In this document: one piece after another, positions 359 to 63,211 of the stretch
How the letters are laid out: the number at the start of each line of letters is the position of its first letter
How positions within the stretch are numbered: the stretch's first letter is position 1
DNA from: an uncultured cyanobacterium
GTDB lineage: Bacteria; Cyanobacteriota; Cyanobacteriia; Phormidesmidales; Phormidesmidaceae
Length of the DNA: 64,000 bases
Reading direction: 5' to 3'
Assembly (NCBI GenBank): GCA_963793265.1
Contig: CAWBZI010000001.1
Span: forward strand, 1,568,001-1,632,000
The notes under the pieces: generated by a model
What the model was told of the DNA's origin: nothing
Seen by the model: the letters and a program-made list of their open reading frames with translations, nothing else
Databases searched by the model: none
Translations under genes and position numbers: made by a program

Positions 359-1794
359 CAAGCAGAGGGTAGCGCCGTTGACCGCCGTGCTTTTTTCTCA
401 AACCAAAGACCGGCCACAATAATGCCAATACCGCAAGCGCCTAGCACTAACGCCTTGAGCATTAATCCAGTGTCGTACTCAAACATACGACTCACAAGGC
501 CGATAACAACAATGCCCATCCCGCCCCAAAAGCGATGGCGAATACCCAGCAGCGTGCCGTCGTGTAGCATTGCAAAGCCGATAAAGAACAAAACTATGTT
601 TGCGATCACCACCCCGTAAACAAACGATCGCTCAATCCACCAAACAATCACCTGAGAAGAAGGAATGAAAACTAAGCATCCCATCACAACTAAAACAACG
701 ATAAAGGCAGGCGTTCTCATCCAAAGCGCGTTTGGAATAGAGTGCTGGCGCGATCTCAGGAACCATCGCCAGAAACCATAAGCAGTCAGTAGCCAGAGCA
801 AAGCCAGCCCTAGCAAAAATGGATAAGGAGCCGTGTATTCCCGCTGCCCGTAAAAAAGTGTGCCTTCTGTCCAAACAACTTCAAAAGAATAGCCATAGGC
901 GGCAATGCTCAGAAACCAAATCGCCAGCGATCGCCCAATCGACATAAAGGGATCCACCTGCCCGCTATCTATCGGCCCTACCGCTCGCCTCCAGAACTGA
1001 GAGTGATACACCCACAACAAAGCCGGTGGCAGCAAGAATACCGCTGTCACTAAAGCCGGACTCCAAGCTGCTACCCGCGTAGTATCAGCCGACAGCAGCA
1101 TCGTCATCAGTCCAACGCCCCACAGCCCGTAGAGCACACGTGAGCGGCACCAGTGCGCCAGCGGTAGATACAGCGGCGTTATCAACAGCGGCAGATACGC
1201 AACCAGTATTCCTATCCAGGAGCTACCTATTCCTGAATCTCCCCAAACACCGCCCCAGCTCGAACCCCAGTGACTCATAAAAATCAGAATCCACGACAGC
1301 ACACCCAAACTGGTCAGCCGCAGCGAGTAGGCCATCACCAGCACCCCCAATCCCCACACCAAATACAGTCCATATACAGAACCGCTTTGATGAAACATCT
1401 GAGACACCAGCCCAATATTTGCGCCCATAATCAGCGCCCCTGAAAGCAACAGACCATTGCCCAACCAGGATGAGCCCAGTTGCCGATCTGAACGTCGCCA
1501 CAGATAAAAGCCAGCCGCATTCACGCTCAAAAATGCGCTGAATATTACCGCCATTCGAAGCAGCCGCGACCACGCCTGCCAGTTAGCCGCCACCAGCGTA
1601 ATCGCACCCAAACCTAACAATATTCCGCCCAAACCCAAGAGTACGGCAGTGAACCGGCTGCTTGAGCTATTTCCAAGCTGCTCGAACCGATAGCGCGATG
1701 CTAATTGCTCGTATATAGCTGTATCAATTACACCTTCTTGCTGCCATTTGGCCGACTCAGCGCGTAGCTCTCGTCGAAATTTCTCTGTACTCAT
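358..1794 (-). CDS. DUF2157-domain membrane protein
   Basis: N-terminal W..EG.ID......L..RY followed by LGG.LLGLG.ITLVAANWQ; many TM helices. Confidence 0.85.
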   Translation of the reverse strand: MSTEKFRRELRAESAKWQQEGVIDTAIYEQLASRYRFEQLGNSSSSRFTAVLLGLGGILLGLGAITLVAANWQAWSRLLRMAVIFSAFLSVNAAGFYLWRRSDRQLGSSWLGNGLLLSGALIMGANIGLVSQMFHQSGSVYGLYLVWGLGVLVMAYSLRLTSLGVLSWILIFMSHWGSSWGGVWGDSGIGSSWIGILVAYLPLLITPLYLPLAHWCRSRVLYGLWGVGLMTMLLSADTTRVAAWSPALVTAVFLLPPALLWVYHSQFWRRAVGPIDSGQVDPFMSIGRSLAIWFLSIAAYGYSFEVVWTEGTLFYGQREYTAPYPFLLGLALLWLLTAYGFWRWFLRSRQHSIPNALWMRTPAFIVVLVVMGCLVFIPSSQVIVWWIERSFVYGVVIANIVLFFIGFAMLHDGTLLGIRHRFWGGMGIVVIGLVSRMFEYDTGLMLKALVLGACGIGIIVAGLWFEKKARRSTALPSA

Positions 1795-2024
1795 CGCCGT
1801 TCTCTTTACCCAATTTCAACAAAAGGAAAGTGCCTTTGTCTCTAAATTGACGGAAATAAGCTTAAAAAAAGAGACAAAAGGTGACGGCTTTCGATCTGGA
1901 TAGAAATCGCGACGCCTTATGAGGATAAGGAAAAAGGTAACAGCAAAGCCTAAATCGTTTAATACAGAAGGTAGGCTTGCCCGCTAAGATAAAGCACTGA
2001 GCGAACTGTCTGCTTCTGTTTTAT

Positions 2025-2939
2025 ATGGCCCCTTTTCAACCGCAGTCCAAACGTGAGCGCAAGCATCAGTCAATGCGTTTCAAGCGCGAAGTTGACGATC
2101 TTATTCGAGGCGTTTGCGGCGGTTTCTTATTTGGCATTCCTCTGCTTTACACCATGGAAGTGTGGTGGATTGGCTCAGTGGCAAGGCCGTCACAACTGAT
2201 AGGGGTGTTGGTTGCAACGCTATTAGGTACCTATTTACTTAGCCGCACAGCAGGGTTTCGTAAGGCCAAAGCGACTACGGAGCGAGAGGCGATTGGAGAC
2301 GCAGTTGAGGCGATCGCAATCGGCATCATCTGCGCTACGCTCATGCTCATCACCTTGCAGCAAATCACCTTCGACACCCGTATCAGCGAGTCTTTAGGCA
2401 AAATTATTTTTGAGAGTGTGCCTTTCACGCTAGGGGTAGCCCTTGCCAACCAGCTTTTACAGGATTCCGACTCAGACGACTCAGGCGACTCGAAACAACC
2501 GAACGATTCTCACTCAGAGCGCTTTTACCCCGAGGGCAATCTTAACGAAACGCTCTCTGATATTGGCGCAACCCTGATCGGAGCCACAATCATTGCCTTC
2601 AGCATCGCCCCTACTGATGAGGTGACAGTACTCGTCGCTGCCGTCGATGGGCCATGGCTAATGCTGACAGTGCTGATCTCTTTAGTGATCTCTTACTGCA
2701 TTGTTTTCCAGGCAAACTTCTCGCGGCAAGGGCAAAGGCGGTTACAAAAAGGGCCATTTCAACAGCCGCTTAGCGAGACGGTCTTCGCCTACCTAATATC
2801 GCTATTTGCTGCCGGGCTGATGCTTGGCTTTTTCCGAAAAATCGATCCGGGTGCGCCGTTAGAACTTGCCTTTCGCCAGATCCTAATTTTAGGACTGCCT
2901 GCAACCATTGGCGGTGCTGCAGGGAGATTGACACTTTGA
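2025..2939 (+). CDS. TIGR02587 family integral membrane protein (DUF2391)
   Basis: GGFLFGIPLLYTMEVWWIG, APTDEV and C-terminal LGLPATIGGAAGRL motifs. Confidence 0.85.
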   Translation: MAPFQPQSKRERKHQSMRFKREVDDLIRGVCGGFLFGIPLLYTMEVWWIGSVARPSQLIGVLVATLLGTYLLSRTAGFRKAKATTEREAIGDAVEAIAIGIICATLMLITLQQITFDTRISESLGKIIFESVPFTLGVALANQLLQDSDSDDSGDSKQPNDSHSERFYPEGNLNETLSDIGATLIGATIIAFSIAPTDEVTVLVAAVDGPWLMLTVLISLVISYCIVFQANFSRQGQRRLQKGPFQQPLSETVFAYLISLFAAGLMLGFFRKIDPGAPLELAFRQILILGLPATIGGAAGRLTL

Positions 2940-3316
2940 GTAAAGCTTCCTCAACGGCAGAGAAGATCAGCTTTTTGATGGCGGCGGCAATTGTGTTAGC
3001 TATTTTTGGGGGCGTGGGTTATCTGTGGACGCGCGATCGCAATCAAGACCCGCCTATCTTACAAGTCACCACCGAAATAGAGCAGCGTCAGGGCCAGTAC
3101 TATGTGCCATTCACCGTCACCAACGCAGGTGGGAAAACCGCAGCCACCGTGCAGGTTATGGCAGAACTGTGGGTTGATGGTGAGCTAGTCGAGTGGGGCG
3201 AGCAGCAGTTTGACTTTCTTTCTAGCCAGGAAGAAGCAGAAGGATCGTTTATCTTTGTTCGCAATCCTGAAGAAGGTGAGCTAACCGTCAGGGTCGCTGG
3301 TTATCAAGCACCCTAA
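2936..3316 (+). CDS. TIGR02588 family protein
   Basis: N-terminal [23 protein letters not shown]; overlaps the TIGR02587 stop, its usual partner. Confidence 0.8.
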
Positions 3317-3348
3317 GAAAAGATGTTCATAGAAAAAGAGGCACCATC

Positions 3349-4356
3349 ATGCAAGCAATTGGTTACAGAGACGCAGGCCCCATCTCATCGGCAAACGCAC
3401 TCACCTTGTTTGAAACTGAAAAGCCGCAGCCTGGCCCAAACGATCTACTCGTAGCAGTCCGAGGCGTTTCGGTGAATCCGGTTGATACCAAAGTACGGGC
3501 AAACGCTCAACCTGATGGCGAATATCGCATTCTTGGGTTTGACGCCGCTGGTGTTGTAGAAGCAGTTGGCTCAAAAGTGACAAGATTTCAGCCGGGCGAC
3601 GAAGTGTTCTATGCAGGCGACATCACTCGCCCAGGAACTAACGCCGAGTTTCACGTAGTTGATGAGCGCATCGTTGGCAAAAAACCAGCATCGCTTGGTT
3701 TCGCAGAGGCTGCCGGAATGCCGCTAACCAGTATTACGGCTTGGGAAATTTTGTTCGACAGCATAGGGCTCAAAGCGGGAGAAGGCAGCGGCGAATCGCT
3801 GCTCGTTATCGGCGGCGCGGGTGGTGTAGGCTCTATCTTGATCCAACTGGCTAAGAAGCTCACAAATTTAACCGTTATTGCCACCGCGTCGCGTGACGAT
3901 ACGCGCGCTTGGGTTGAAAAGATGGGCGCGGATCATATTGTCAATCACCACAATCCGCTTGACGAAGAGATGAGGGCTCTAGGCATTTCGCCGCGCTATG
4001 TTGCCTCGCTGACGCATACCGGCAGTCACTATGGAGCAATTCAAGCATTGATTAAGCCGCGCGGTCACATTGCTCTGATTGATGATCCAGAGTCGCTTGA
4101 TGCTAGACCCCTAAAAGGCAAAGCGCTTTCCTTGAGTTGGGAACTAATGTTTGTTCGTCCGATGTTTCAAACAGAAGATATGGACGAGCAGCACAAGCTG
4201 TTGAATAGGGTTTCAGAACTTCTCGATGACAGCACGCTAATTGCGACCGCTAACAGTCATGGTGGCGCTCTGAGTGTTGAAAATTTGCGTGCCGCGCATG
4301 AGCTACAGGAAAGCGGCAAGGCGATAGGTAAAACCGTATTGGATGGTTTTACCTAA
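3349..4356 (+). CDS. Zinc-binding alcohol dehydrogenase / quinone oxidoreductase-like MDR protein
   Basis: [40 protein letters not shown] motifs. Confidence 0.9.
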
Positions 4357-4363
4357 AACGCGA

Positions 4364-5152
4364 CTACTCAGCCGCGTGATCGTCTACTTTACCAAAGCGG
4401 CGATCGCGCCCCTGAAACGCTTTCATCGCCTGATGAAACTCATCGGTATCAAAGTCAGGCCACAGCGTATCGGTAATGTAAAACTCCGAATAGGCAAGCT
4501 GCCAGAGCAGGAAATTACTGATCCGCATTTCGCCGCTGGTGCGGATGAGCAAATCGGGGTCGCTGATATCAGATGTGTAGAGGTGGCGGCTAAAGAGAGA
4601 TTCGTCAATGTCTTCGGGCTGGAGCTGGCCTGCTTTTACCTGGGTTGCGATCGCCCGACAAGCCTGCAAAATCTCCTGCCGCCCGCCATAATTCGTCGCC
4701 ACCGAAAACCGAATACCCGTATTCTGTGCCGTCTCCTGCACCGCCCGGTCAATCTCCTGTTGCAGCGTATCTGGCAGCGCCGAAAGATTGCCGACAAACT
4801 GAATTCGCACGCCCTCTTCCATCATCTCTTTTAGCTCCTGCCTCAGCACTCGCTCAAACAGCGTCATCAGAAAATCGACCTCGCGCGTAGGTCGTCCCCA
4901 GTTCTCGGTTGAAAACGCATAGGCCGTCAGCGCATCCACACCCCAGTCTCGGCAGCAGCGCAGCAGCTTTTTGAGCGTATCAACACCCTTACGATGACCC
5001 ATGATCCTGGGTAACCCTCGGCGCTTAGCCCAGCGGCCATTGCCATCCATAATCACCGCGACATGGGAAGGCATTCGAGTGGGCAGCAAATCTGTCGGTA
5101 GCGACAGAGAAGACGCTGAAGGCGCAATAGAAGCACCAGAATTGGCTGTCAT
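4364..5152 (-). CDS. uppS: Isoprenyl transferase (undecaprenyl diphosphate synthase)
   Basis: [52 protein letters not shown]. Confidence 0.97.
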
Positions 5153-6030
5153 TTCTTTTCCTGGGGAGAGGAGCGGGGGAGCTTACGCTTGATCGCGCTT
5201 AAAAAGTTAATCCCTTTTAGGCTCAGCCGCCGTCCTAAGCTTCGTAGCTGAGGGGCAACCGTATCGCCGTCAGTCGTAGGCGAAAACTTATCAAGCAGCA
5301 GTTCCCTCAGTTTACTGCTGGTCAGGGGGCGGTTTAACATTCCTTGCTCGGCCACCGAAATCGAGCCGGTTTCTTCAGAAACCACCACGCAAAGGCAGTG
5401 CTCCACACGCTCGGTAATGCCCATCGCCGCCCGGTGCCGAGTGCCAAGCTGCCGAGAAGCATCTCTTTCAGAAATCGGCAAAATGACGCCTGCTGCCAAT
5501 ATCCGCGATCCGCGAATGAGTACGGCTCCATCGTGTAGCAGCGTCGTCGTTTGAAAAATAGTCTGCAATAGCTCCCGCGATAGCTCCGCGTTCAGCCGTA
5601 CGCCCGGCACAGAAAAAGCGCTTTCTTCAATCGGCTCGTCGGTTTCCAAAATCATTAGCGCGCCGGTTCGATTTTGGCTCAGCCCTTTTACTGCCTCCAC
5701 TAGCTCATCAATCACGCTATTGGCCGTCGAAAGCTGGCTCTCTTGCCCAACAAATAGCTGACCAATTTCGCCGCGACCAAGCTGTTCTAGCAGCCGCCGG
5801 AACTCGGGCACCAGCATAATTGCCAGCGCCACCGAAGCGCCTAGCAGCAACTTGTCCATCACAAAATTGAGCAGCCACAGGTCTGCCGCCTTGCTTAGCA
5901 AAGTAGCGGCCATCAGTACAAGCAGCCCTTGCACCATCCACATCGTCCGGCGATCGCCACGAATCACCATCAGCACTGCATAAACCAGTGCCACAACGAG
6001 GCAAATATCAATGATGGTGCCATACCACAA
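5149..6030 (-). CDS. cdaA: Diadenylate cyclase
   Basis: Three N-terminal TMs, LHDGA, GTRHRAA, VVSEETG; lysA-cdaA-uppS synteny. Confidence 0.95.
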
Positions 6031-6098
6031 GAGTCAGACCTGCTTCATGAGATGCCGGTTCAATCTAGGAATATGCGCTTTGAGCGCACCCGGCAGCT

Positions 6099-7508
6099 TT
6101 ACTTTACGGGTTTTAGGGAATTTGGCAACCGATCTTGACGAACCAAATCTTCATAGGTTTCACGGCGCAAAATCACCTCGGCCTGGCCCTGATTTACCAA
6201 CACCGCCGCCGGACGCGGTACCCGGTTGTAGTTGGAGGACATGCTGTAGTTATAAGCGCCCGTGGCAGGCACGACCACCACATCACCGGCTTCTAGCGGT
6301 GGCAGTGTTGCCGACTGTATCACTACATCGCCCGACTCGCAGTGCTTACCGGCCAAGGTCACCGTTTCAGATAGCGGCGCAGACATCTTACTCGCGGCAA
6401 GTGCTCTGTACTCTGACTGATAGGTAATGGGGCGCGGATTGTCAGACATGCCGCCGTCTACAGAGACGTAGGTGCGGATGCCGGGTACAGTTTTTTGGCC
6501 GCCGACGGTGTAGGCCGTAACGCAGGCAGAGCCGATGAGCGATCGCCCCGGTTCACACAAAATCTTCGGCAAAGGCAAATCAGCCGACTTGCAAGCCGCC
6601 GCCAGGCTTTCACACACCGTCTTTGCCCACGCATCAATGCTCGGGGGATCGTCAGACTCGGTATAGCGAATGCCCAAGCCACCACCAATATCAATCTGCT
6701 CAATCGGCAGACCGTACTTATTCGCCGTTTGGAACCAGCGCACCATCACGCCGGGGAGATCTTCATGCGGCTGTAGTTCAAAAATCTGCGAGCCAATATG
6801 CGCGTGTAGGCCAACGCAGTTCAGGCTATCGCCCTGCTGAGAAATGAACTCAAACACTTCTTCTAGCTGATCAGGGTCAAAGCCAAATTTGCTGTCGATG
6901 TGGCCGGTCTGAATATATTCGTGAGTATGGCACTCAATCCCAGGCGTCAGTCGTAGCAGAATCGTTGCCTTTTGTTCGCCGCTGGCTAGCTCGTTGAGCG
7001 TTTTTAGCTCGTGCCAGTTATCAACGACAATATGCGCGCCTGCTGCTAGGCCCAGCTTCAGCTCGTCTAGCGACTTATTGTTGCCATGGAAGTACAGGTT
7101 TTCGCTTTTAGCGCCTGCATCTATCGCGGTTTGCAGTTCACCGCCTGAAACAACATCAATGCCGATGCCTTCTTGAGAGGCGATCGCACACACCGCCAAG
7201 CAGTTCCAAGCCTTAGAGGCATACACAATCAGCGACTCGCCTGGATAGTGCTTTTCAAAAGACTGCTTATACTGCTGGCAAGATTCTCGCAGCGTATGCT
7301 CATCTAATATATAGAGCGGCGATCCAAACTCTTCAACCAGGCTCACCACATCACAGCCACCCACCACCAGATGGTCTTTCTCATTCACCTTTGCCCCTAA
7401 CGGCAGCAGCAGTTGATTAGGTGAGGCATCAGATTCACTAGATATGTATTGCAGGCTCGTTGTCTGTGATGCTGAAGCTGAGGGAGGCGCTGAAACAGTA
7501 GAAACCAT
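6099..7508 (-). CDS. lysA: Diaminopimelate decarboxylase
   Basis: YASKA (PLP lysine), SKFG, HAHIGSQI, EPGRS, GKHCESGD, GAY. Confidence 0.97.
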   Translation of the reverse strand: MVSTVSAPPSASASQTTSLQYISSESDASPNQLLLPLGAKVNEKDHLVVGGCDVVSLVEEFGSPLYILDEHTLRESCQQYKQSFEKHYPGESLIVYASKAWNCLAVCAIASQEGIGIDVVSGGELQTAIDAGAKSENLYFHGNNKSLDELKLGLAAGAHIVVDNWHELKTLNELASGEQKATILLRLTPGIECHTHEYIQTGHIDSKFGFDPDQLEEVFEFISQQGDSLNCVGLHAHIGSQIFELQPHEDLPGVMVRWFQTANKYGLPIEQIDIGGGLGIRYTESDDPPSIDAWAKTVCESLAAACKSADLPLPKILCEPGRSLIGSACVTAYTVGGQKTVPGIRTYVSVDGGMSDNPRPITYQSEYRALAASKMSAPLSETVTLAGKHCESGDVVIQSATLPPLEAGDVVVVPATGAYNYSMSSNYNRVPRPAAVLVNQGQAEVILRRETYEDLVRQDRLPNSLKPVK

Positions 7509-7629
7509 GGGAAGCTAAAAGATGATATAGAGGTCTGAAGAAAATAGACTTAGACAGTACAGTGTACAATTGGCCGCTCTTAAGTCGCACTTGAGCGATC
7601 GCAAATGTTAGTTAACGTTAGGCATTTTT

Positions 7630-8313
7630 TTGTCCTTTTTAGCCTGCCTGCCCCTCGTAGAAGCTGACATCACCGCCGTCCTAGCGCTCGACCAGCGATG
7701 CTTGGGCGGACTGTGGACGCGCTCAGGCTACAGGCGAGAAATTGAAAGCGACTGTAGCGATTTACGGGTGCTAGTATCCACATCTGATCCAGAGGCTTTG
7801 CGCCTGCGGAGTACAGCCATTTTTGCCACTGCTGATATTACTGATGCTAATTCACCAGCCGCCGAATCCCCACATACTAACTATCTAGCTGCTATCGATC
7901 CGACCGATACCTCATTGTCTAACTATCCAATTCAGCTACTCGGCATTGGCTGTTTGTGGGCTGTTATGGAAGAAGCGCACATCACCACACTGGCAATTGA
8001 GCCGACCTGTCAGGGGCAAAAGCTCGGCCAGTTTTTAATCACTGAGCTTTTGCTTTGCGGTCATCGCAGAGGGTTGACCAGAGCCACGCTAGAAGTTCGA
8101 GCCTCTAATCAGAAGGCACTTAGCCTGTATCAAAAATTTGGCTTTAGGGAGGCCGGGCAGCGCAGGCGGTATTACTCAGATGGTGAGAACGCGCGGATTC
8201 TATGGAGAAGTGGGCTACAAGAGCAGGATTTTTTAGGGCAGATTGAGCAGAGAAGGGAAGAGGCGATCGCGCATTTCACCCAAACCAATACCTACAAACT
8301 TACGCTTGCCTGA
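7630..8313 (+). CDS. rimI: RimI-type GNAT N-acetyltransferase
   Basis: EEAHITTLAI, ATLEVRASN..A..LYQKFGF...G.RRRYY; upstream of clpC as is typical in cyanobacteria. Confidence 0.85.
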   Translation: MSFLACLPLVEADITAVLALDQRCLGGLWTRSGYRREIESDCSDLRVLVSTSDPEALRLRSTAIFATADITDANSPAAESPHTNYLAAIDPTDTSLSNYPIQLLGIGCLWAVMEEAHITTLAIEPTCQGQKLGQFLITELLLCGHRRGLTRATLEVRASNQKALSLYQKFGFREAGQRRRYYSDGENARILWRSGLQEQDFLGQIEQRREEAIAHFTQTNTYKLTLA

Positions 8314-8666
8314 CTAACGCGCTCTTATACCAGCACGACGCTAGCCGTCTTCGGTAGCTCTGTCTAAAGGCATATTAAATGTCACTGATCCCTCAAAATT
8401 TTCGGTGCTAAAACGAGCCAAACATTTGTTCTTTTTTTCCTTTTTAAAGAGGCAGTTTTATGCACTCACGCTATACCTGTAGCGTATGTAGCTAAATAAA
8501 CAGAGTTATCCTCTATTGACTGCCTACTAACAGAGAGCAGCGAGTGAATAATCGGCATAGCAAACGCTAATATCCTTTAGGGGTAGTGAATACCGCCCGC
8601 GTCCTCCGAAATTTTGCTGTGCTAGAATCACAGCAACCAGCCCGTAGCAGGTGATGGAATACCGCC

Positions 8667-11150
8667 ATGTTTGAACGCTTTACAGAAAAGGCCATTAAGG
8701 TCATCATGCTTGCCCAAGAAGAGGCCCGCCGTCTGGGTCATAACTTCGTTGGCACAGAGCAGATTCTTCTCGGACTCATTGGAGAAGGCACAGGAGTCGC
8801 AGCCAAAGTACTGAAATCAATGGGGGTCAACCTCAAAGACGCTCGGATTGAAGTCGAAAAGATTATTGGTCGCGGGTCAGGTTTCGTTGCCGTTGAGATC
8901 CCATTTACGCCTAGAGCCAAGCGCGTTCTTGAGCTATCGCTTGAGGAAGCCCGGCAGCTAGGACATAACTACATTGGCACAGAGCACCTATTGCTCGGCC
9001 TGATTCGTGAAGGTGAAGGCGTTGCCGCTCGGGTACTCGAAAACTTAGGCGTAGACCTTTCTAAGGTACGCACCCAAGTCATTCGGATGCTGGGCGAAAC
9101 GGCTGAAGTCTCTGGGGGCTCAGGCGCTCAGGGTCGCACCAAAACTCCTACGCTAGACGAGTTTGGCTCAAACCTGACTCAGATGGCGATTGATGGCAAG
9201 CTTGACCCCGTGGTCGGTCGCCAAAAAGAAATCGAGCGCGTCATTCAAATTCTAGGACGCCGTACTAAAAATAATCCTGTACTCATTGGCGAGCCTGGCG
9301 TTGGTAAAACAGCACTGGCCGAAGGCTTAGCCCAGCGCATCGGCAACGGTGACATTCCAGACATATTAGAAGATAAGCGAGTCGTTACGTTAGATATTGG
9401 CTTGCTTGTAGCCGGTACCAAATATCGCGGTGAGTTTGAAGAACGTCTGAAAAAGATCATGGATGAAATTCGCGCCGCCGCGAACGTCATTCTGGTGATT
9501 GACGAGGTTCATACCCTGATTGGGGCAGGTGCCGCTGAAGGCGCGATTGATGCGGCCAACATTCTCAAGCCCGCCTTAGCGCGTGGTGAGCTGCAATGTA
9601 TTGGCGCGACTACCCTTGATGAGTATCGCAAGCACATTGAGCGAGATGCGGCCCTAGAAAGACGCTTCCAGCCGGTGATGGTCGGTGAGCCTAGCGTGGA
9701 GGAGACAATCGAGATTCTTCACGGGTTGCGCGATCGCTACGAGCAGCACCACAAGCTCAAGATTTTAGACGAGTCTTTAGAAGCTGCGGCCACGCTCTCT
9801 GATCGGTACATCTCTGATCGCTTCCTACCGGACAAAGCGATTGACCTAATCGACGAAGCCGGTTCGAGAGTGCGTTTGTTGAACTCTCAGCTACCACCAG
9901 CGGCTAAAGAGCTAGACAAAGAGCTGCGTCAGGTGCTTAAAGATAAGGACAATGCGGTTCGTTCTCAAGACTTTGATAAGGCTGGGGAACTGCGCGATCG
10001 CGAAATGGAAATCAAATCCGAAATTCGCAACATCGCTCAAACCAAGAAAGCTGAAGACGAAGAAAACACCAAAGACACTTCGCCCGAAGTTACCGAAGAG
10101 GACATCGCTCATATCGTCGCTTCCTGGACGGGCGTTCCCGTTCAAAAGCTCACCGAGAGCGAGTCTGAGAAGCTGCTGCATATGGAGGACGTACTCCACC
10201 AGCGCCTGATTGGTCAAGACGAAGCCGTCAAAGCCATCTCGCGGGCAATTCGCCGGGCGCGCGTGGGCCTCAAAAACCCCAACCGTCCAATTGCCAGCTT
10301 TGTATTCTCTGGCCCTACAGGCGTCGGTAAAACCGAGCTTGCTAAGTCCTTAGCCGCCTACTTCTTCGGCGCTGAAGAAGCGATGATTCGCCTCGACATG
10401 TCTGAGTTTATGGAGCGCCACACCGTTTCTAAGCTCATCGGCTCGCCGCCAGGCTATGTCGGCTACAACGAAGGCGGTCAGCTCACCGAAGCCGTACGCC
10501 GTCGCCCTTACACCGTCGTCCTGTTCGACGAGATTGAAAAGGCGCACCCCGACGTATTCAACATGCTGCTGCAAATTTTGGAAGACGGTCGATTGACCGA
10601 CGCCAAAGGCCGCACCGTTGACTTCAAAAACACCTTGCTCATCCTCACCTCTAACATTGGCTCCAAGGTCATTGAAAAAGGTGGCGGTGGCTTAGGCTTC
10701 GAGCTAGAGGCCGACCAGGCAGAGTCGCAGTACAACCGCATTCGCTCTCTGGTTAATGAAGAACTCAAGACGTACTTCCGTCCTGAATTCCTCAACCGCC
10801 TCGACGAGATTATTGTCTTCCGTCAGCTCACTAAGGACGAAGTTAAAGAAATCTCGGTCATCTTGCTCAAAGAAGTCTTCAGCCGACTGGAGCTACAGGG
10901 CATTCGCCTGGAGGTCACTGAGAAATTCAAGGATCGACTGGTGGAGGAAGGCTACAACCCGAGTTATGGCGCAAGGCCGTTACGCAGAGCTATTATGCGA
11001 CTGTTGGAAGATAGCCTGGCTGAGGAGATCCTGTCGGGTCGAATCAAAGATGGCAGCACAGCGGTTGTAGATATTGGCGAAGATAATAAGGTTGTGGTGA
11101 CCTCATCAGCGACTGAGGAAAAGCGAGAGCTTGCCGCTGCTGCTGACTAG
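8667..11150 (+). CDS. clpC: ATP-dependent Clp protease ATP-binding subunit ClpC
   Basis: [31 protein letters not shown], two AAA+ modules ([16 protein letters not shown]), UVR coiled coil. Confidence 0.98.
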
Positions 11151-11422
11151 ATAGCCTTAAATAGCTATCAAACGCTAGAAAAGTAATAGAAGCGCTCGAA
11201 GAGATAATTCTTTGGGCGCTTTTATTTATGAGAATCATCGCCCTAATTTGACGGACTTCGCCAGCGGTTTGTAAACAGAAGTAACGCTGTCTTGCGTTGT
11301 TCCGCAACGAAAATCAATAATTAAAGAAGGGCGGTGTAATCCACATGTCAGGTAATCTTGCTAAGCGGCCTGCTGTGATTTTAAACGCTCAAACTTTCAA
11401 AAAACTCATTGGTAAAGTAGCC

Positions 11423-12070: not shown

Positions 12071-12122
12071 AGTGTTCAATTGAAGCGTTAACATCAGAAC
12101 CGCAAAAGTGTGGCCGTCGTGC

Positions 12123-12175
12123 AAAGCCGCATCCGAGAAGTTGCCTGTCGTGCTTCTTAGATGCGGCTTATTTTA
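12123..12175. terminator. Hairpin between convergent genes
   Basis: AAGCCGCATC...GATGCGGCTT followed by ATTTT. Confidence 0.55.
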
Positions 12176-12200
12176 TGACTAAAATCTAGCAGGAAATCAT

Positions 12201-14097: not shown

Positions 14098-14101
14098 CTT
14101 C

Positions 14102-50046: not shown

Positions 50047-50105
50047 TCACTCATCAGCAAAATTTGCGAACTTAAGGGCACTGTCTGGCGACTGCCTTAT
50101 TACGA

Positions 50106-50297: not shown

Positions 50298-50352
50298 AGC
50301 CTAATACTCAAAACTCGACAACAAATGGGTGCTGTAGTTAGGTCTACAAAAT

Positions 50353-50442
50353 CTAGAAGCCGTTGCGGCCCCAAATCACCATGGAGATAGAAAAAGTGAA
50401 GCAGCCCAACAGTGAAACCCAGCCCAAAGTCAAAATATCCAT
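50353..50442 (-). CDS. petN: Cytochrome b6f subunit VIII
   Basis: Not in the track. Manual translation [29 protein letters not shown] (29 aa). Confidence 0.95.
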
Positions 50443-50541
50443 AATAAAAGCGTCAATGTCTTCAGCTTCTATCATACGGTAAAGCTAGGCCCTTGAATGG
50501 CTAAGACCAAAAGAACTTAACCCAAATCGTTCAGTCAATAT

Positions 50542-51000: not shown

Positions 51001-51025
51001 AGGGTAGAGCTAAGCCGAGTCGAAG

Positions 51026-51691: not shown

Positions 51692-51773
51692 ACGTATGCC
51701 TACACCATTAAAACTAGATATACAAATATCCTGATAGTTCAACTGTAGCGCTCAGACAGAGTTTAGATAGCGC

Positions 51774-54700: not shown

Positions 54701-55103
54701 AAGCCGTAAAGCCCAGCGCTGCGATCGCATCATCAAAAGGAACTAGCCAGCTTTCGAGGGATAGCGCCTGCTGACCATCCTCTGCCCCTTTTACCAAAGC
54801 AGACCGCTCAGAATCGCCCTGAGAACTATTTACGCTCCGTAGCTCTACCATTAGCGTACCGAGATCTGTAGGATTCTCGGTCGCCGCAACGCTCACAGCG
54901 GCTTCTACCTGAGAGGGCAAAACAGAAGTCAACGAAGCTATTGGCGATTCAGGCAATTCATCTAACGGATCAACTGGCGCTAGCAGCCAGTCTTCATCGG
55001 CGGTTATCCCAGCGGCAAAGCTTTCGGTTGGAATATCAGTTTGTTCAGACTGCTCAGCTTGAAGAGGCGCTGCATAGAGAGCATCTGCTATATAGACATC
55101 CAT
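51774..55103 (-). CDS. Large usher-like outer-membrane protein with C-terminal carboxypeptidase-regulatory-like (Ig) domains
   Basis: Long amphipathic beta-rich core, FLD.D.DG.RD..E, G.V......V.GA.V....TN.AG.Y.LE.L; downstream of a PapD-like gene. Confidence 0.7.
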   Translation of the reverse strand: MDVYIADALYAAPLQAEQSEQTDIPTESFAAGITADEDWLLAPVDPLDELPESPIASLTSVLPSQVEAAVSVAATENPTDLGTLMVELRSVNSSQGDSERSALVKGAEDGQQALSLESWLVPFDDAIAALGFTASVQTDGRLELRSPEVVNHIDLASLRVDPELGAVWSVAELEALFGVSVEFDRVNYALHIKEAAISKGGSPGSTLPAFTSEYAFIHAESKSAKDSPAQTLTASPAPAISQNPEALGMMLVGLAIDDITTVEATLVKGRENGEAALAFDRWLIPFEDVMTALGSSVTPTDDGLLLIRAPGLATAIDPDTLQTDTDLGPVMSIAEIEKSLGITADFSFAQYAIRFHPPSLDQLNSANISGVSSRPVITDGLPAIAPAAVSLGGVRQATLVTGSSQSALTSTTAQLSAVGSAFDGSWYTRIDQPDAMKPSTWRLSELQYLRQGDYSDYVVGSQPTFWRSPVSDRTRSRYQNYWGLTTVQRRHVTPPDFTFRGGFNPGLRMQADTIGRTVVGEAAPGTFVQLTRGLNGSAIAETIVDASGIYRFENVPAAGQLSSQYSNQGYQVQLYANGQLASEPEIRSAVFTTLPGQLPKGASTLIASVGMGHRQLDQQFLGDFNSLRGGVAYRLGLSESLTVGAGLVQDGSLQTLSEVFYLPEGVPLQAAMSAMVNLQTGQAQIDANVRYQPARNLRLSFDSDRFSQRFQADWRLSPGLALLARGNTRARTLSVGMQTSYRTSSWSGSASAAVDTRQRIRWNLNTQTQRLRFAHQGNEISTYSDLVYRLSNKSQRIAGAGHTLALTHETRTHDLETVALGGGWAVIAQWRYQSPQRVDGQSKWRYALGYGIGSRRSGPVVSAATAIGQGLDLQVRYQGVSAFSDRDSFQISLVSHLGVQDSGIRNGGDRSPQRHLSLGHRHQAALRTQGGLILQPFLDADADGVRDISEPLYLEDSELLLQINHRALSTYQLAAQADGLMMTLPPDTYRLDIDPAGLPLDRTIASLAYAVEVVAGQYTAVPLPLLLSYSVSGVVVDASGAVVAGARVEAMSEQGDRKVSVTNGAGVYYLERLRPEVYKLEVNGVVLEHVPLILEGESEPFQEREIQLL

Positions 55104-55145
55104 ATATAGTGATTCATAAATTATCTAAGGTCATTCAAAACACGG

Positions 55146-55961
55146 CTACGGCGCGGTCACTGGCAGTTCAAAAAGCTGTGAGTAGGCTTCGCCACGTGTC
55201 GTCCAGCGCATTTCGCCCTTGAGCCGGTAGCTACCGGCTGGTAGCGCCTCTGGCAAACCAATCGAAAAGAGGCGATCGCCCCCAGTCGCCACCGTATGTT
55301 CATTCAGCTCGCCAGCAGCAAAGATTTGCCCAGCAGCTTGTTCAGCGTCTTTTACAAGCTGCCAGCTCAAACTAGCGCGAGCACTTGCCTGCCCCTGATT
55401 ATTGACGAGCACATCAAGCGATCGCCCGTCAGCCGCTACAGTAGCGCTCTGCCCAGCTAAGACCGCAGACAGATCGCCTTGATGTACGTACAGCGTCGAG
55501 CCCACCCGGACATTGACAGCCACCGCACCGGTCTGAGCCGCGCTCTCAACCAGCTCCTCTGCAAAAATCGCTGCTCTGTATTCGCCCGCCGGAAATCCCG
55601 GTGGAAAAAGGCTCAGCACCCGCACCCGCTGTTCTGCGCCTGGCGGAATCACAACCTCGCGCGGAGAGAATTGAAGATACGGAGAAAGATCGGCGGCATC
55701 TTCGCGCAGGCTCACAAAACCGTCACGCCCGTAGGTAAAGGGTTCGGCATAAACTCTCGCCCGTACAGGCCGCTCGGTGCCGTTCGTTAATGTCAATACA
55801 CCTTGCGATCTTCCCCGCTCTGCCTGCTCTTCAAAAAATAGAGGCGACAGCCCCATTTGAGCAAAAGCAGGCGAATAATTCGCTAATACCGCAAAGGGAC
55901 TCACTATCAGGCTACCTACAGTTGCAGCCTTGATATAAAAAACTGATAAACGCATTTTCAC
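55146..55961 (-). CDS. PapD-like pilus assembly chaperone
   Basis: Signal peptide (AFA), G.SPL, L.L.N, FSP....IPPG..Q.VR, GEYRA.IF.E. Confidence 0.75.
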   Translation of the reverse strand: MKMRLSVFYIKAATVGSLIVSPFAVLANYSPAFAQMGLSPLFFEEQAERGRSQGVLTLTNGTERPVRARVYAEPFTYGRDGFVSLREDAADLSPYLQFSPREVVIPPGAEQRVRVLSLFPPGFPAGEYRAAIFAEELVESAAQTGAVAVNVRVGSTLYVHQGDLSAVLAGQSATVAADGRSLDVLVNNQGQASARASLSWQLVKDAEQAAGQIFAAGELNEHTVATGGDRLFSIGLPEALPAGSYRLKGEMRWTTRGEAYSQLFELPVTAP

Positions 55962-56153
55962 AGGTTTGAGTTAGAAACTACTAGAAACTACTACATATAA
56001 AAGAGATGCTCAGAAAGTCACTCAGAACCCTCCCGAACATCTCTACTTCAAAACTCAATCTACTCTCAAAAAAGCACTAGACAGCTATTGATAGAGCCAC
56101 TCAAAATGCTTTTATCAGTTAAAAAGAGGCGCTAGGTTTCAGTTAGCTGGCTT

Positions 56154-56630
56154 TTAGTTGTAGGTGACGGTAACAGGAACCGTAAAGGTATAGGCTCCTG
56201 CTTCGATAACGTCTGAATTGGTAGAGGCTGTCATATCGACAGCAATCACATGTACACCGGCTGGCAAGCTATCGATTGAGGTTGCACCTGATGTAGAAGT
56301 CGTCACGCTAGCTGAAGATGTTTTAGTACCATCGAAATTGGTAGCGCCTACGCTAGCGCCCTGTTCGGGCTCTTCGGTAGCAAGGCTAGAGCTAACAGAG
56401 CAGGTTACTACGACACTTCCGGCAGCGCCGCCTGTCGCTGTAGAAGTCAACGTAGTGGGCTGGTTGTCATCGATTGCTAGCAGCCCTACGGTTGGGACAG
56501 CAAGGCAGCTAGGCGCAACAACAGATGTGTAGATTACGTCTGCATTAGCTTCAGCCGCAGTAGCGCTAGAGGCGATCGCATTTAGCCCGCCAAACGCAAA
56601 CAGCAGACTTGCTAGGAGATAGTGTTTCAT
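56154..56630 (-). CDS. Secreted pilin-like subunit
   Basis: Signal peptide, A/S/T-rich beta protein, two Cys, C-terminal AGAYTFTVPVTVTYN. Confidence 0.65.
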   Translation of the reverse strand: MKHYLLASLLFAFGGLNAIASSATAAEANADVIYTSVVAPSCLAVPTVGLLAIDDNQPTTLTSTATGGAAGSVVVTCSVSSSLATEEPEQGASVGATNFDGTKTSSASVTTSTSGATSIDSLPAGVHVIAVDMTASTNSDVIEAGAYTFTVPVTVTYN

Positions 56631-57081
56631 AGTTGTCTTTCAAATTGTGTTCTTGGTTAATCAAGCTAAAGACAAAAGTCTTGCAAAAAAGCCTTTGCGA
56701 ACAACTCAATCCTCGCTGTCTTCAGCACACAAAAACTAACAGCTATTCTGGCTTCTAACCAGTGGCAAGAATACGGAAACATTACTTTTATTACATTTAT
56801 TTGTAAAAGCGTACTTTCGCTGAAGATCACTTTTAAAGAGGTATGAACGCTCACTTTTTTGAAGCTTTCTGATCGCGATCTGCGAAAGAATAGCTAGCCT
56901 TAGGCCAACACAAAGTTACAGCGCTCTATCCGAAGGCATAAGTAGATGTGCCATAGCGGATGACTTCGCTATTGGTGCTGCAAAATTTTCGGGTTATCCA
57001 CACCCTGCTGGAACAAAACAAAAATGAGGTGAAGTCTGTACAATTCAAGTGAACGAAATAATTGAACTTAAGTAGCTTCTA

Positions 57082-57687
57082 ATGATTCCAACCGTTATCG
57101 AGCAATCGGGTCGCGGTGAACGCGCCTTCGATATCTACTCTCGCCTGCTCAGAGAGCGCATCATCTTTCTCCACGGGCAGGTCGATTCAGACTCTATGAA
57201 TCTGATCGTGGCTCAGATGCTCTTTTTAGAAGCCGAAGACCCCGAAAAAGATATTTATCTCTATATCAACTCTCCTGGTGGCGTGATCAATGCAGGCTTG
57301 GGTCTTTACGACACCATGAACCATATTCGCCCCGATGTAGCCACTATCTGCATGGGCTTAGCGGCGAGTATGGGTGCGTTTTTGCTCAGCGCAGGCACGA
57401 AAGGCAAGCGCATGATTTTGCCAAATGCTCGCGTGATGATTCACCAGCCCTCAGGCGGCGCGCAGGGTCAGGCGACTGATATTGAAATTCAGGCCAAAGA
57501 GATTCTGTATCTCAAAAGCTCTCTAAACGAGGCAATGGCTAGGCATACAGGACAGCCTTTAGAGAAGATCATGGAAGACACTGAGCGCGACTTCTTTATG
57601 TCTCCAGAAGAAGCTGTAGAGTACGGCATCGTAGACAAGGTGATCGATCGTCACGCTGTTGGCTCTCGTCCTACCCCGGTTGAATAG
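57082..57687 (+). CDS. clpP: ATP-dependent Clp protease proteolytic subunit
   Basis: [44 protein letters not shown]. Confidence 0.98.
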
Positions 57688-57705
57688 TTTCTAATCTTCT
57701 AGAAC

Positions 57706-57750
57706 GCAAAAAGGGCAAGCGCTACTCTATCCAGAGCTTGCCCTTTTTGC
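57706..57750. terminator. Bidirectional terminator
   Basis: GCAAAAAGGGCAAGC...GCTTGCCCTTTTTGC between convergent genes. Confidence 0.8.
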
Positions 57751-57776
57751 TTTAAAGATTTCGACTCGACAAAAGA

Positions 57777-58217
57777 CTATTCGTCTTTATCGAATGAGCA
57801 CTCAACCGTAATGCTCAAATTGCTCTCAGCCGTGCCTTTAGTCACATAAGGCACGCCTGCCTCGCCGCCCACGCGAATGCCAAACTGCAACGTTACTTTG
57901 TCTACATTGCCCTGAGACATGTCCTTGAACGCGCTAAGCGTGTGCGTGGTGTAGGTGCGAATAGTGCCCTCAATGGCCTTAAAGCTTTGGGCTGCGATCG
58001 CTGCTGCCCCACCGCTATCACCGCCACCGCCAGGAAAGCCAACCATCCCCCGAGAGCCGCCACCGCCGCCCCAGCCTTTCTGCCCACGGCGCACTTCATC
58101 TTCTTCCTCGTCGTCATCGCTATCAACATCAACCGTCGGCGGAACGGCCACATCATCAGTCGCCTCTATATAGATTTCGGTGCCGTCTTCTAGCTGAATA
58201 GGAACGAGCTTAGCCAT
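57777..58217 (-). CDS. CU044_2847 / Trypco1 family protein
   Basis: L.DGT.IYIEA, V.L.FGI..GGEAGVPY.TKG.AE.NL.I.V. Confidence 0.75.
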   Translation of the reverse strand: MAKLVPIQLEDGTEIYIEATDDVAVPPTVDVDSDDDEEEDEVRRGQKGWGGGGGSRGMVGFPGGGGDSGGAAAIAAQSFKAIEGTIRTYTTHTLSAFKDMSQGNVDKVTLQFGIRVGGEAGVPYVTKGTAESNLSITVECSFDKDE

Positions 58218-58471
58218 GCTGAAAAATCCTGTGTAGATGTAGGGAGGTAACTGTGAAACGTGAGAATCGAAAGTACGGTCAGGATGCCCATCTACAAAGC
58301 TGAATCATCAAATTATGTTGGAATGTTTCGAGGTGATCGCCCCCTCCGGTTTTCCCTACTACGCAACCTCTCGTTTTTTGTCTACATTGGATGCATTGGG
58401 CTGTAGCAAAGGCCACTTTAGCCAGGGCCCCGAAGCCTATAACCAAATTTGTGACTGAAAGTAGCACGACT

Positions 58472-60620: not shown

Positions 60621-60753
60621 TAGTCTAGTCGTTTCAAATAGCGCTTCATTGAATGGCTCTTAATTGCAATTGGCTCGATGCGAACAACATCAAAGGCAAT
60701 CTGCACAAGCAATTCAATGAAGCGCTGTAGCCTATGAAACAGCAGCAAGACTA
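60621..60753. repeat. Long inverted repeat in the purL-purF spacer
   Basis: Perfect AGCGCTTCATTGAAT (60640-60654) / ATTCAATGAAGCGCT (60712-60726), extended by GTTTCA/TGAAAC and TAGTC/GACTA. Confidence 0.8.
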
Positions 60754-60892
60754 AACTTAATGTTTTGTTAAACTTTATGTTCAAATCCTATCACTCTCTG
60801 TAGCACTGCTCGCCTAGATTACGTATAGACGCCGCGCTTTTTATACAGAAGCTTAGAGCAGCTGATTTTGGGCTTTCTAAAAGACAAAATCT

Positions 60893-63211
60893 CTAGCTAT
60901 CTTTAGCTAAAGCGCGTTCGATAGCGTTATTCCATTGGTCTGCTGCGTGTGCTACTGAAAGAGAGACAAGTGTGCGATCGCCCTTTCTAATCACTAAAGG
61001 CGAATCCGCCGTACCCACCGCGCCAAGCTGCTGAATGCTTCCCACATGCGACCGACAATAGCGCTCCCATTCAGCCTGATTGGTCGGCGCGACCGACACC
61101 AAAATACGCGCACCCCCTTCGCCAAAGAGCACCGTATCTAGCCGCAGTTGACTGCTTGATAGCGTAACGGTTGCGCCTTTTTGCCCACTAATACAAGATT
61201 CAGCCAGTGCGATCGCCATTCCTCCTTCTGCACAGTCATGCGCCGAGCGAATCCACCCCTGACGAATACCGTGCCGACAAGCCGCCTGCACCTTCAGCTC
61301 TAGCGCCACATCTACCTTCGGCGGCTGCCCTGCCACCGTCTGATGAATCAGCTTGAGATATTCAGCCCCCCCTAAAGTCACAGACCCTTCACCAGTACTA
61401 TCAGACCCTACCCCTAGCAGATAAATCAGATCGCCTTCTTCCTGAAAAGCCTGACCGCACACCTTCGTTAAATCAGGCACTAGGCCCACCATGCCCACAA
61501 CGGGCGTCGGATAGATTGGCTGAGGCTTGCCCGTACTATCGAGCGTTTCGTTATAGAGCGACACGTTACCACCCGTTACAGGTGTTGAGAACTGCCGACA
61601 GCCATCAGCTAATCCCCGGCAGGCTTCTGCGAGCTGCCAGTAGCCAATCGGCTTTTCAGGGCTCCCGAAGTTGAGATTATCAGTAACCGCCACTGGTTCT
61701 GCGCCGACACAGCTCAGGTTACGAGCCGCTTCAGCGACCGCTGCTAGTGCGCCTTCGTAAGGATTGAGGTATACGTGACGGGCGTTGCAGTCTACGGTAG
61801 CGGCGAGTCCTGCATCAGCTTTTAGATCTGGTTTGATCTGAGATCGCAGCCGAATTACCGCCGCATCAGCCCCACCCGGCATCATTACCGTATTGTTTTG
61901 CACCTGATGGTCATACTGCCGGTAAACCCACCGCTTAGAGGCGATCGTCGGCGTTGCTAATAGCGCCATCACCACCTGAGTCCAGGACTGCTCACCAATT
62001 CCCTCAGCCGTTGCCTCCGGTAGCGAGCTTTCCTGCCAGGCCCAAGCCTTTTGCGCATACTCAGGCGGCTCAGCCATCAGCTCATGCTGATAGATCGGCG
62101 TATTATCCGACAGCGCAGTCGCCGGGATTTCAGCCGCCACCCCGCCCTCAAACAAAATCCTCACAATCGGCTCTTCAATCACCGAACCGGCCACCACCGC
62201 CTGCAATCCCCAGCGATGAAAAATATCAACTAGCTCCTGCTCGCGCCCCGCATGAGCCACAAACAGCATTCTCTCCTGCGACTCCGAAAGCAAATACTCA
62301 TAAGGCACCATCCCCGGCTCCCGCTCAGGAATCAAGTCCAAATCTAGCTCAATTCCCACACCGCCATTTGCCGCCATCTCAGCCGTAGAGCACGTAATTC
62401 CAGCAGCCCCCATATCCTGCGCCGCCGCCACGCCCCCGGTCTTAAACGCCTCCAAACAAGCCTCCACCAAAGACTTCTCCAAAAACGGATCGCCCACCTG
62501 CACCGCAGGCCGATTCGCCTCCGACTCATCGCTCAGCTCCGCACTCGCAAAGCTAGCGCCCCCCATTCCATCGCGCCCCGTCGTCGAGCCCACATACAGC
62601 ACCGGATTCCCAATCCCCACAGCCCCCGACTTCACAATCTCGTCAGTTTCCATCAGGCCAATCGCCATCGCATTCACCAGCGGATTGCCACTGTAGGCTT
62701 CATCAAAAAAGACTTCGCCCCCCACCGTAGGCACCCCAAAGCAGTTGCCATAGTGCGCAATCCCAGAAACGACGCCCGTAAAAATCTGTCTAGTCCGCGC
62801 GTCTTCTAGACTTCCAAAGCGCAAAGAGTTGAGCGCTGCAATAGGCCGAGCGCCCATCGTAAAAATGTCTCGCAAAATGCCGCCAACACCAGTAGCTGCA
62901 CCTTGAAAGGGCTCAATAGCTGAAGGATGATTGTGCGATTCGATCTTAAAGGCAACCTGCATTCCATTGCCCACATCAATCACGCCCGCGTTTTCGCCAG
63001 GGCCGACCAAAATTCGCTCGCCCTCCGTCGGAAACTGACTTAGCAAAGGCCGTGAGTTTTTGTAGCAACAGTGCTCTGACCACATCACCCCAAACATCCC
63101 TAGCTCAGCACGATTCGGATGACGGCCCAACCGATTCACGATTTCGTCATACTCATCGGGCTTAAGCCCCTCTGATGCAATATCTTCGGGCGAGCAAGCA
63201 GCAGTTGCCAT
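60893..63211 (-). CDS. purL: Phosphoribosylformylglycinamidine synthase subunit PurL
   Basis: [48 protein letters not shown]. Confidence 0.98.

Follow-up and report, generated by a model that had tools for sequence, protein, structure and literature searches.

Why does the plus strand of a cyanobacterial chromosome turn abruptly from G-rich to C-rich at one short repeated word, in the middle of genes and whichever strand is coding? The question arises in a stretch of 64,000 nt from the genome of an uncultured cyanobacterium (the window: positions 1568001–1632000 of contig C1 in assembly G000, 5.68 Mb in 7 contigs and 98.97% complete), where the palindromic octamer HIP1, GCGATCGC, occurs 68 times between positions 927 and 61216 against 1.8 expected from shuffles. 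Three decades after it became known, HIP1 still lacks a demonstrated function in the available text of two studies (PMC5861425; PMC13756078). A first-pass annotation had noticed the switch by eye and had read it as the trace of a nick or entry site at HIP1, with 5′→3′ resynthesis leaving the opposite strand exposed to deamination. The switch is indeed a real, octamer-specific and polar footprint: HIP1 anchors a directional, strand-specific bias of fixed polarity in two tract classes (~57 nt and ~1 kb). Anchoring and directionality thus stand, the nick is a best guess, and the deamination part fails.

Each site was given a flip score, (G − C) in the left flank minus (G − C) in the right flank over 30 nt on each side. 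Of the 68 window sites, 59 scored positive, 4 zero and 5 negative; genome-wide, 85.4% of 6,883 sites scored positive, compared with 46.2% of an equal number of random positions, so the switch is not an effect of choosing examples by eye. Recounting the flanks at 42633, 49093 and 34690 reproduced the hand counts exactly, and the gene names offered at the outset (a YifB/ComM-type ATPase, a RecQ family member, purA, rsmB and purL) were confirmed. Genome-wide there are 6,884 copies at a spacing of ~0.8 kb, distributed over the reading frames as 2884, 2081 and 1189, with 715 intergenic. Genes were taken from a purpose-written caller (4,900 genes, 83% coding), so the intergenic class may include missed genes. 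At fourfold-degenerate positions 16–60 nt from HIP1 the window holds 187 G and 98 C on the left and 76 G and 241 C on the right. Reading 5′→3′ away from the site, the coding strand has C 0.47 and G 0.11 at 6–10 nt versus 0.30 and 0.28 at 401–600 nt; the template strand behaves alike (0.45 and 0.12 versus 0.30 and 0.28). A and T are nearly constant, with an AT skew of ~+0.05 in the 3′ flank over all sites, and of the G/T-rich to C/A-rich change originally described the G/C part holds while the A/T part is small. Fourfold G+C rises slightly genome-wide at 21–50 nt (0.61 versus 0.58).

When all sites are averaged, the skew changes sign at position 0, and both flanks are skewed in 32 of 32 200-kb blocks regardless of the regional sign. 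The effect is largest at fourfold sites, codon positions 1 and 2 shifting less; ln(C/G) is 0.86–0.90 in each of the three reading frames, and at up to 10 nt from HIP1 intergenic DNA has a skew between −0.37 and −0.25.

The footprint belongs to the octamer. On contig C1, GATC outside CGATCG (2,970 sites) and the control words GCTAGC, GCGCGC and CGCGCG showed no skew. CGATCG with both outer bases changed is likewise without skew. A scan of all hexamers more than 250 nt from HIP1 found that HIP1-like words alone flip. Among the 12 strand-independent one-mismatch classes lying at least 200 nt from HIP1, two-sided skew was confined to GTGATCGC/GCGATCAC, which retain ~70% of the HIP1 skew (n = 494); three other classes leave a faint one-sided trace within 20 nt. 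GTGATCGC is also the commonest one-off word (494 versus 99–289 for the others), and a relative carries HIP1 at 21 of 50 alignable copies of GTGATCGC/GCGATCAC versus 18 of 207 other one-offs. The class thus consists largely of HIP1 relics, the remainder possibly reflecting older loss or partial activity; the 29 copies lacking a HIP1 orthologue still have a skew of −0.26. The excess of GTGATCGC relics fits C5 methylation.

No dinucleotide context or motif structure was found in the flanks, and bases at +1 to +6 alter the long-range flip by no more than 0.15 z, so that a longer recognition word can be set aside. Mirror positions showed no excess complementarity over shuffled flanks and were depleted of it at 1–3 nt, which rules out an extended hairpin or cruciform. 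At ±1 to ±3, bases that would lengthen the palindrome are avoided. Nor do some sites stand apart as "hot": the residual flips show over-dispersion (sd 1.84), yet are symmetric.

Over 436,239 fourfold G/C positions, the best of ten decay forms was a sum of two exponential terms counted from the closest HIP1 in either direction, one of amplitude 1.25 and scale 57 nt and one of amplitude 0.52 and scale 990 nt. A single exponential, a power law and a logarithmic form all fitted worse, and models of one-dimensional diffusion towards the closest HIP1, in sinh or linear form, were 55–98 units worse by the Akaike information criterion (AIC). In gaps of 2–4 kb, ln(C/G) is still +0.20 at 500–1000 nt. 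The second-nearest HIP1 carries a weight of −0.05 in the short term and 0.47 in the long term: the short tract class stops at the next HIP1. The effect adds to the regional skew (slope 0.72 at 2–15 nt and 0.87–0.97 beyond, in 113 50-kb blocks), and its profile over six site classes resembles the genome's own regional strand skew. Far from HIP1, the regional G/C skew is strong and patchy: ln(C/G) has an sd of 0.24 and reaches ±0.6, and its autocorrelation extends over distances of 1 kb to tens of kb, with residuals in segments of ~0.4–1.2 kb. This skew shows neither clean replichores nor a link to gene direction; it may represent scrambled replichore relics or multi-origin replication.

Two long C-rich stretches had been presented as tails of single sites. 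In the gene for the YifB/ComM-type ATPase, third-position skew is +0.4 to +0.7 before the switch and −0.8 after it, with 4 G and 75 C at fourfold sites in 31434–32000, and site 31426 ranks second for its long tail among 5,707 scorable sites in the genome. The extreme C-richness is real, but HIP1 is not its whole cause. Residual flips are symmetric (1.6% of scorable sites at z > 4, 1.5% at z < −4), so such tails are a HIP1 tail with regional skew noise added. ComM is a transformation helicase, and the location of this switch, at 30872–32401, in a ComM-type gene is probably a coincidence. The stretch in purL is likewise C-rich, but the average HIP1 tail does not explain it. The CGATCG core proposed as its source, near 61942, lies in the one-off word GCGATCGT at 61941 and is not shown to cause it, because that class has little or no skew.

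Is the skew a consequence of the site or a setting in which sites arise? In 281 aligned genes of G000 and two other genomes, G164 and G020 (out of 493 and 562 called genes), HIP1 is present in all three at 207 of 481 aligned site positions; an earlier set of 140 genes gave the same picture. The analysis used 314 of the 481 positions, each isolated by more than 120 nt. The 163 isolated sites common to all three have fourfold skews of −0.57, −0.57 and −0.58. The 31 sites found only in G000 show −0.58 there versus −0.15 and −0.01 elsewhere, and the 16 found only in G020 show −0.41 there against +0.14 and +0.01. The 24 sites restricted to G164 reach −0.10 there (+0.01 and −0.04 in the others), which counts partly against fast build-up. 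Sites lost in one genome keep their skew in it: −0.65 (n = 12), −0.26 (n = 13) and −0.31 (n = 55). The skew thus builds up after the birth of a HIP1 and outlasts its loss, and therefore the site precedes the skew. HIP1 itself is conserved, with no changes in 120 and 144 site bases of two close pairs; its conservation has been noted elsewhere (PMC5861425). In the three-way alignments, newly gained HIP1 often departs from the orthologous word in 2–3 of its letters, more than single-step drift suggests. Because the skew needs the octamer, is maximal at silent sites, follows gain and decays like a tract, an anchored directional process is indicated.

How widely the footprint occurs was gauged by ln(C/G) at third positions 16–60 nt from HIP1. 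It is 0.65 in the source genome, whose PurA is 96% identical to relatives titled Phormidesmis sp. among the matches listed, 0.34–0.81 in five other stretches of the genus, and 0.43–0.93 in six metagenome loci found by genus-level alignment. A survey of 69 loci left 49 HIP1-rich ones after 5 genus loci, 1 with the alternative word GGGATCCC and 14 with fewer than 10 sites had been set aside; 42 of the 49 were positive; z exceeded 2 at 15 loci and nowhere fell below −2, and the weighted mean, over heterogeneous values, was 0.16 ± 0.02. The survey loci include kin and so are not independent, and most genomes outside the genus are represented by one 20-kb stretch each, with errors of 0.06–0.2. Repetition in other HIP1-rich cyanobacteria, which the first-pass annotation had suggested, thus gives a strong signal across the genus and a weak, mostly same-signed one elsewhere. 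Named Nostocales loci pooled to 0.52 ± 0.09, and G202 (160 sites) gave 0.05 ± 0.04. Two of the 14 low-count loci (3 and 1 sites) were negative. The word GGGATCCC (G027, 29 sites in one 20-kb stretch) had no third-position skew. Plasmid values, which may understate the chromosomal signal, were +0.04 ± 0.10 for pSYSM, +0.11 ± 0.08 for pCC7120alpha and +0.16 ± 0.06 for pAQ7, with no skew on pANL of S. elongatus (−0.04 ± 0.06, 95 sites); a tblastn search of PurA against plasmids gave no match. S. elongatus is listed among species without a CGATCG methylase (PMC4390886). E. coli GATC was flat (+0.05, −0.04 and −0.02 over 435 sites in 100 kb; −0.04 ± 0.03 in the survey measure), and E. coli CCWGG had no comparable skew. 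Individual genomes depart from the common profile: G195 and G229 lack the near-site peak and keep the longer tail, and G310 has mainly the short component, with skew also at CGATCG without the G..C flanks. Three 20-kb stretches, L191 (from G111), L210 and L212, contain no HIP1 and 0–1 CGATCG; G111, which belongs to a HIP1-rich family, may have lost HIP1 or may restrict CGATCG.

The source genome encodes candidates for the enzymes that a process at HIP1 might use. A motif scan gave matches for mutS, mutL, polA, recJ and uvrD, and xseA, ComEC and DprA are also present. No MutH (PF02976) match was found in it, the E. coli control being positive, and neither Vsr nor NucS was found there. It has two dcm-family proteins and one dam-family protein, candidates for CGATCG and GATC methylases. 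All 7 genomes of the genus that were searched carry a dcm-family C5 methylase, as do 1 of 18 other members of the family and 8 of 36 genomes of other families. An orphan C5 methylase (L278:526–1836, equivalent to G000:C4:631026–632336) is 60–78% conserved across the genus, although in G020 and G007 it seems to be split. Next in rank, at 58–61%, come named homologues that include proteobacterial ones, hinting at horizontal gain; the homologue search yielded no target specificity. The methylase is a lead for why this genus is extreme. RadC and GIY-YIG proteins have elsewhere been named as correlating with HIP1 (PMC13756078).

What kind of change produces the footprint can be asked of the substitution rates. 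Near/far ratios were estimated between G164 and G020 on the 3′ strand at fourfold sites of the 281 three-way orthologues (4,477 near, 16,291 far; gene bootstrap), and at a fourfold distance of ~0.7 they are model-based estimates. Complementary changes shift in opposite directions: A>G 0.60 [0.50–0.73] and T>C 1.53 [1.34–1.73]; C>A 0.61 and G>T 1.69; C>G 0.68 and G>C 2.34; C>T 0.81 and G>A 1.06 [0.90–1.28]; T>G 0.93 and A>C 1.19. Exit rates are 0.81 for A, 0.75 for C, 1.43 for G and 1.38 for T, and the total is 0.98 [0.89–1.06]. The means of complementary rates are ~1 in five of the six pairs. Neither that total nor the poor fit of protection alone points to lowered mutation near HIP1, but a genome-wide long-range protection would be invisible to a near/far contrast. 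When 12 models were compared by likelihood, with far sites from the same 139 genes as near sites, a six-parameter model of polarity sorting had the best AIC (21151.5), 31 units ahead of a one-parameter bias (21183); protection only (21297) and added damage only (21336) followed. On the 3′ strand, the one-parameter fit (C +0.70 and G −0.70, with A and T at 0) covers most of the signal. Relative to it, protection alone was worse by 110–190 units, added damage alone by 50–150 and added oxidised G alone by 180–280. The data say that one strand's letter wins, not how. In a strain pair of 97.4% identity, with 317 SNPs over 12.2 kb, SNP density does not change with distance from HIP1 (0.022–0.033 in all bins), and it is likewise flat in a 92.5% identical pair. 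Among the best 40 of 401 rows by depth, 7 of 9 SNPs on one contig and 6 of 6 on another lie within 60–75 nt of HIP1; such clustering was absent in an independent strain pair and was dropped as support.

Deamination is excluded as the sole cause; for the enzyme and the pathway we infer the following. Our preferred reading, held tentatively, is that HIP1 is the entry point of a polar strand-replacement process that resolves mismatches. A nickase, for which MutL is a candidate, would cut at HIP1, which is probably methylated; the strand leading 3′ away from it would be removed and remade 5′→3′, whichever strand held the wrong base, so that the strand lying 5′ of HIP1 would win as template. G-containing mispairs (G:T, G:G, G:A and oxidised G:A) would be commoner than their C-containing counterparts; beyond G/T versus C/A, this order of mispairs and the part given to oxidised guanine are assumed. 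Errors in the 5′ strand would be fixed and those in the 3′ strand erased, leaving G before and C after each HIP1 with no net change in fidelity. In each asymmetric pair, the strand 5′ of HIP1 gains the base that would sit in a G-containing mispair. In replication, G/T mispairs far outnumber C/A (PMC6159521), which favours this reading. Also in its favour are the opposed shifts of complementary rates, the AIC of polarity sorting, the stop of the short tracts at the next HIP1, the likeness to regional skew, the rise of the skew after gain of a site, the motifs of repair genes, the dcm- and dam-family genes, and the lack of skew on pANL. The choice of replaced strand depends on the mispair assumption; composition by itself does not decide it. 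More tentative still is the wider proposal of an undescribed cyanobacterial pathway in which thousands of methylated HIP1 sites would act as programmed strand-entry points, a MutH-independent nickase and 5′→3′ tracts of ~57 nt and ~1 kb choosing which base is kept at mismatches from replication, chromosome-copy exchange or transformation. On that view HIP1 would serve as a signal for polar gene conversion across the genome, not as a tag for fidelity or uptake, and the skew around it would be a fossil map of the tracts, strongest in Phormidesmis-type genomes.

Several observations weigh against strand replacement at HIP1. The C↔G pair has a mean of 1.51 [1.18–1.90], not 1. A nine-parameter reversible bias (AIC 21170–21173) ties with polarity sorting (21175–21180), and a free 12-rate model beats both, so the rates do not single out polarity sorting; up-only and down-only models with a free overall rate come within 15–26 units. 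The G>A/C>T pair is the least asymmetric, and to accommodate it one must further assume that the pathway is bypassed in most such changes. It is not obvious what a cell would gain from strand-blind repair, and no nickase was identified. Outside the genus, the skew is 0.16 with the C5 methylase and 0.15 without it, and neither this enzyme (17/61) nor xseA (29/32 over the cut-off), a MutY-type domain (32/32) or NucS (3/32 over the cut-off) separates strong from null genomes.

Biased gene conversion, which implies the same composition as repair, is rather unlikely, though transformation work lends it independent support. HIP1 would fix one end of a recombination heteroduplex, formed in natural transformation or by chromosome-copy exchange in a polyploid cell, and the mismatch type would decide the surviving allele: either C:C escapes while G:G and G:T undergo correction on a donor strand that begins at HIP1, or there is more tolerance of G-containing mismatches on an invading strand that ends there. 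The one-parameter fit has the shape of a fixation bias, and a reset at each HIP1 suits DNA cut at HIP1. E. coli corrects G:G best and C:C very poorly (PMC3167615), which favours conversion. HIP1 in homology arms raises transformation 7-fold, and more than 100-fold when methylated, without AddAB (bioRxiv 2024.09.10.611283), HIP1 abundance follows competence genes (PMC13756078), and here ComEC and DprA are present and same-species contigs are mosaic. Conversion is harder to square with the lack of a SNP excess near HIP1 in both strain pairs, the 31-unit lag of one-parameter bias behind polarity sorting, the weak skew on the plasmids of PCC 7002 (+0.16) and PCC 6803 (+0.04), where HIP1 aids transformation, and the small effect that mismatch repair had across the genome in pneumococcal transformation (PMC3375284). 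Weak selection or molecular drive is formally the same as the one-parameter fit. A G-rich 5′ side (C-rich 3′ side) would help a protein such as RecA/DprA, a helicase or uptake machinery to load at HIP1 and move along or coat one strand; HIP1 itself is conserved, and TGG is about twice as frequent 5′ of it, RecA reportedly preferring TGG repeats. We regard this as unlikely: there is no T preference to suit RecA (weight of A minus T ~0), no dinucleotide, motif or hairpin structure in the flanks, and a weaker effect in intergenic DNA, with smooth exponential tails to 1 kb and the same signature as regional skew.

That signature, and a HIP1 spacing of ~0.8 kb, could also be had if HIP1 marked replication features such as fork meetings, Okazaki starts or restart sites, giving a small-scale leading/lagging skew, and many cyanobacteria use multiple origins (PMC7198777). 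This is very unlikely, because both flanks are skewed in every block whatever the regional sign, the effect adds to regional skew without override, and forks would work on a longer scale than 57 nt; with blocks as patchy as these, leading strands could not be assigned. Deamination (C>T, A>G) of a single strand exposed 5′ of HIP1 is highly improbable, although the signs of both transition asymmetries agree with it and T>C is up 1.53-fold. It predicts G>A and T>C up on the 3′ strand and nothing down, whereas G>A is flat, four other rates go down and a large share of the signal comes from transversions; its AIC is worse than that of the one-parameter model by 865 (pair), ~770 (triple) and 645–750 (same genes, with or without a free rate). 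Least credible of all is that the switch arises as a side effect of protein coding, codon choice or transcription, or from selecting sites by eye. Most HIP1 lie in genes and positions 1 and 2 do shift a little, but the fourfold maximum, the equality of coding and template strands both up- and downstream and of the three frames, the intergenic effect and the flat control palindromes all contradict it.

In the literature searched, mostly open-access text without supplements and including PMC13756078, PMC5861425 and PMC4390886, no flanking gradient at HIP1 is described, and the polar footprint is apparently unpublished. Elhai's ratchet, a mismatch repair directed by G-mC, shares the motif, the full G..C-flanked octamer and a reach of ~1 kb, and there too MutS and MutL are present, MutH is absent and one-offs decay by C-to-T (PMC4390886). 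In its available text it predicts site creation and fidelity and no polar flank gradient, the flank analysis dealing with short palindromic extensions (PMC4390886); here, in contrast, total divergence near HIP1 is unchanged, with a 57-nt component and fixed polarity. Dam/MutH repair in E. coli has a methylated, GATC-containing palindrome as a possible nick site and kb-scale tracts, but the present genome has no MutH and GATC alone is flat in both organisms. Vsr/Dcm repair also involves a C5-methylated palindrome and makes short 5′→3′ patches; here there is no Vsr, and the T:G product GTGATCGC is not depleted. Eukaryotic hotspot-biased gene conversion and Okazaki junctions leave decaying substitution footprints centred on a sequence-defined DNA end. 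These favour G+C on both strands or raise the rate, whereas the HIP1 bias is strand-antisymmetric with G+C and total rate nearly unchanged. Leading/lagging GC skew similarly has a large G/C part and a small A/T part over site classes, and the sign at HIP1 is terminus-like if the leading strand is G-rich; the HIP1 footprint differs in being anchored at ~6,900 dispersed octamers, with 57-nt and 1-kb scales, additive to regional skew. The G/T islands around Chi are a codon artefact, unlike the HIP1 skew. Chi is non-palindromic and one-sided, whereas HIP1 is a palindrome with an equal effect on both sides. Like Chi, HIP1 is short and repeated, has a G-rich strand whose 3′ end lies at the site, and boosts homologous integration; unlike Chi, its effect on transformation is AddAB-independent (bioRxiv 2024.09.10.611283). 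With DNA uptake sequences the likeness lies in the competence genes present here.

The polar footprint means that something acts directionally from HIP1, and it offers a testable handle on HIP1 function. Any HIP1 model must match its numbers: polarity, two tract lengths, next-site reset, octamer specificity, constant total rate, and C +0.7/G −0.7. It also names a lineage with a signal ~4 times the cross-family mean, and means that distance to HIP1 shapes the local GC skew of these genomes, their choice among synonymous codons and some of their amino-acid choices. The coordinates of the features in the window are collected in the table.

Table. HIP1 sites, composition switches and relic words in the window (window positions).
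Feature	Position	Observation
HIP1 starts	927, 2310, 3033, 4400, 4647, 5950, 6539, 7180, 7595, 8263, 9730, 9994, 11894, 13041	
HIP1 starts	14283, 14396, 14940, 15393, 17026, 17746, 18351, 19700, 20048, 20268, 20450, 21447, 21596, 22065	
HIP1 starts	22102, 23401, 24411, 25673, 31238, 31426, 34690, 35796, 36843, 37137, 37624, 38097, 39022, 42633	
HIP1 starts	43094, 45699, 46551, 46741, 47154, 48237, 49093, 49762, 50169, 50847, 51933, 52374, 52989, 53485	
HIP1 starts	53685, 53699, 54665, 54721, 55272, 55418, 56572, 57994, 58520, 59942, 60974, 61209	
HIP1 42633–42640 in purA (+)	42573..42700, including ~60-nt flanks	11G/3C before, 2G/11C after
HIP1 49093–49100 in rsmB (−)	49033..49160, with flanks	12G/2C then 3G/14C; polarity as in + genes
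HIP1 34690–34697 in RecQ-family gene (+)	34630..34757, with flanks	12G/7C then 1G/14C
Long-range switch in YifB/ComM-type ATPase gene	30872..32000	At HIP1 31238/31426
C-rich stretch in purL (−)	62050..62700	Fourfold 14G/73C; nearest HIP1 61209
C-to-T relics GTGATCGC	29769, 58333	Relic span in window 602..58340
C-to-T relics GCGATCAC	602, 40076, 51584, 52621	Six relic sites in total with GTGATCGC

Three further features of the window may be mentioned. A HIP1-free segment of 5.5 kb (25681–31237) has few called genes, among them one XRE-type regulator, and is probably foreign DNA. GGCGCC has no copies in the 64 kb, possibly through restriction-site avoidance. Along 42101–62000, same-species environmental contigs are mosaic, with 0–3 differences in many 1-kb pieces and 39 differences in 1.44 kb at 51324–52763, suggesting imported tracts.

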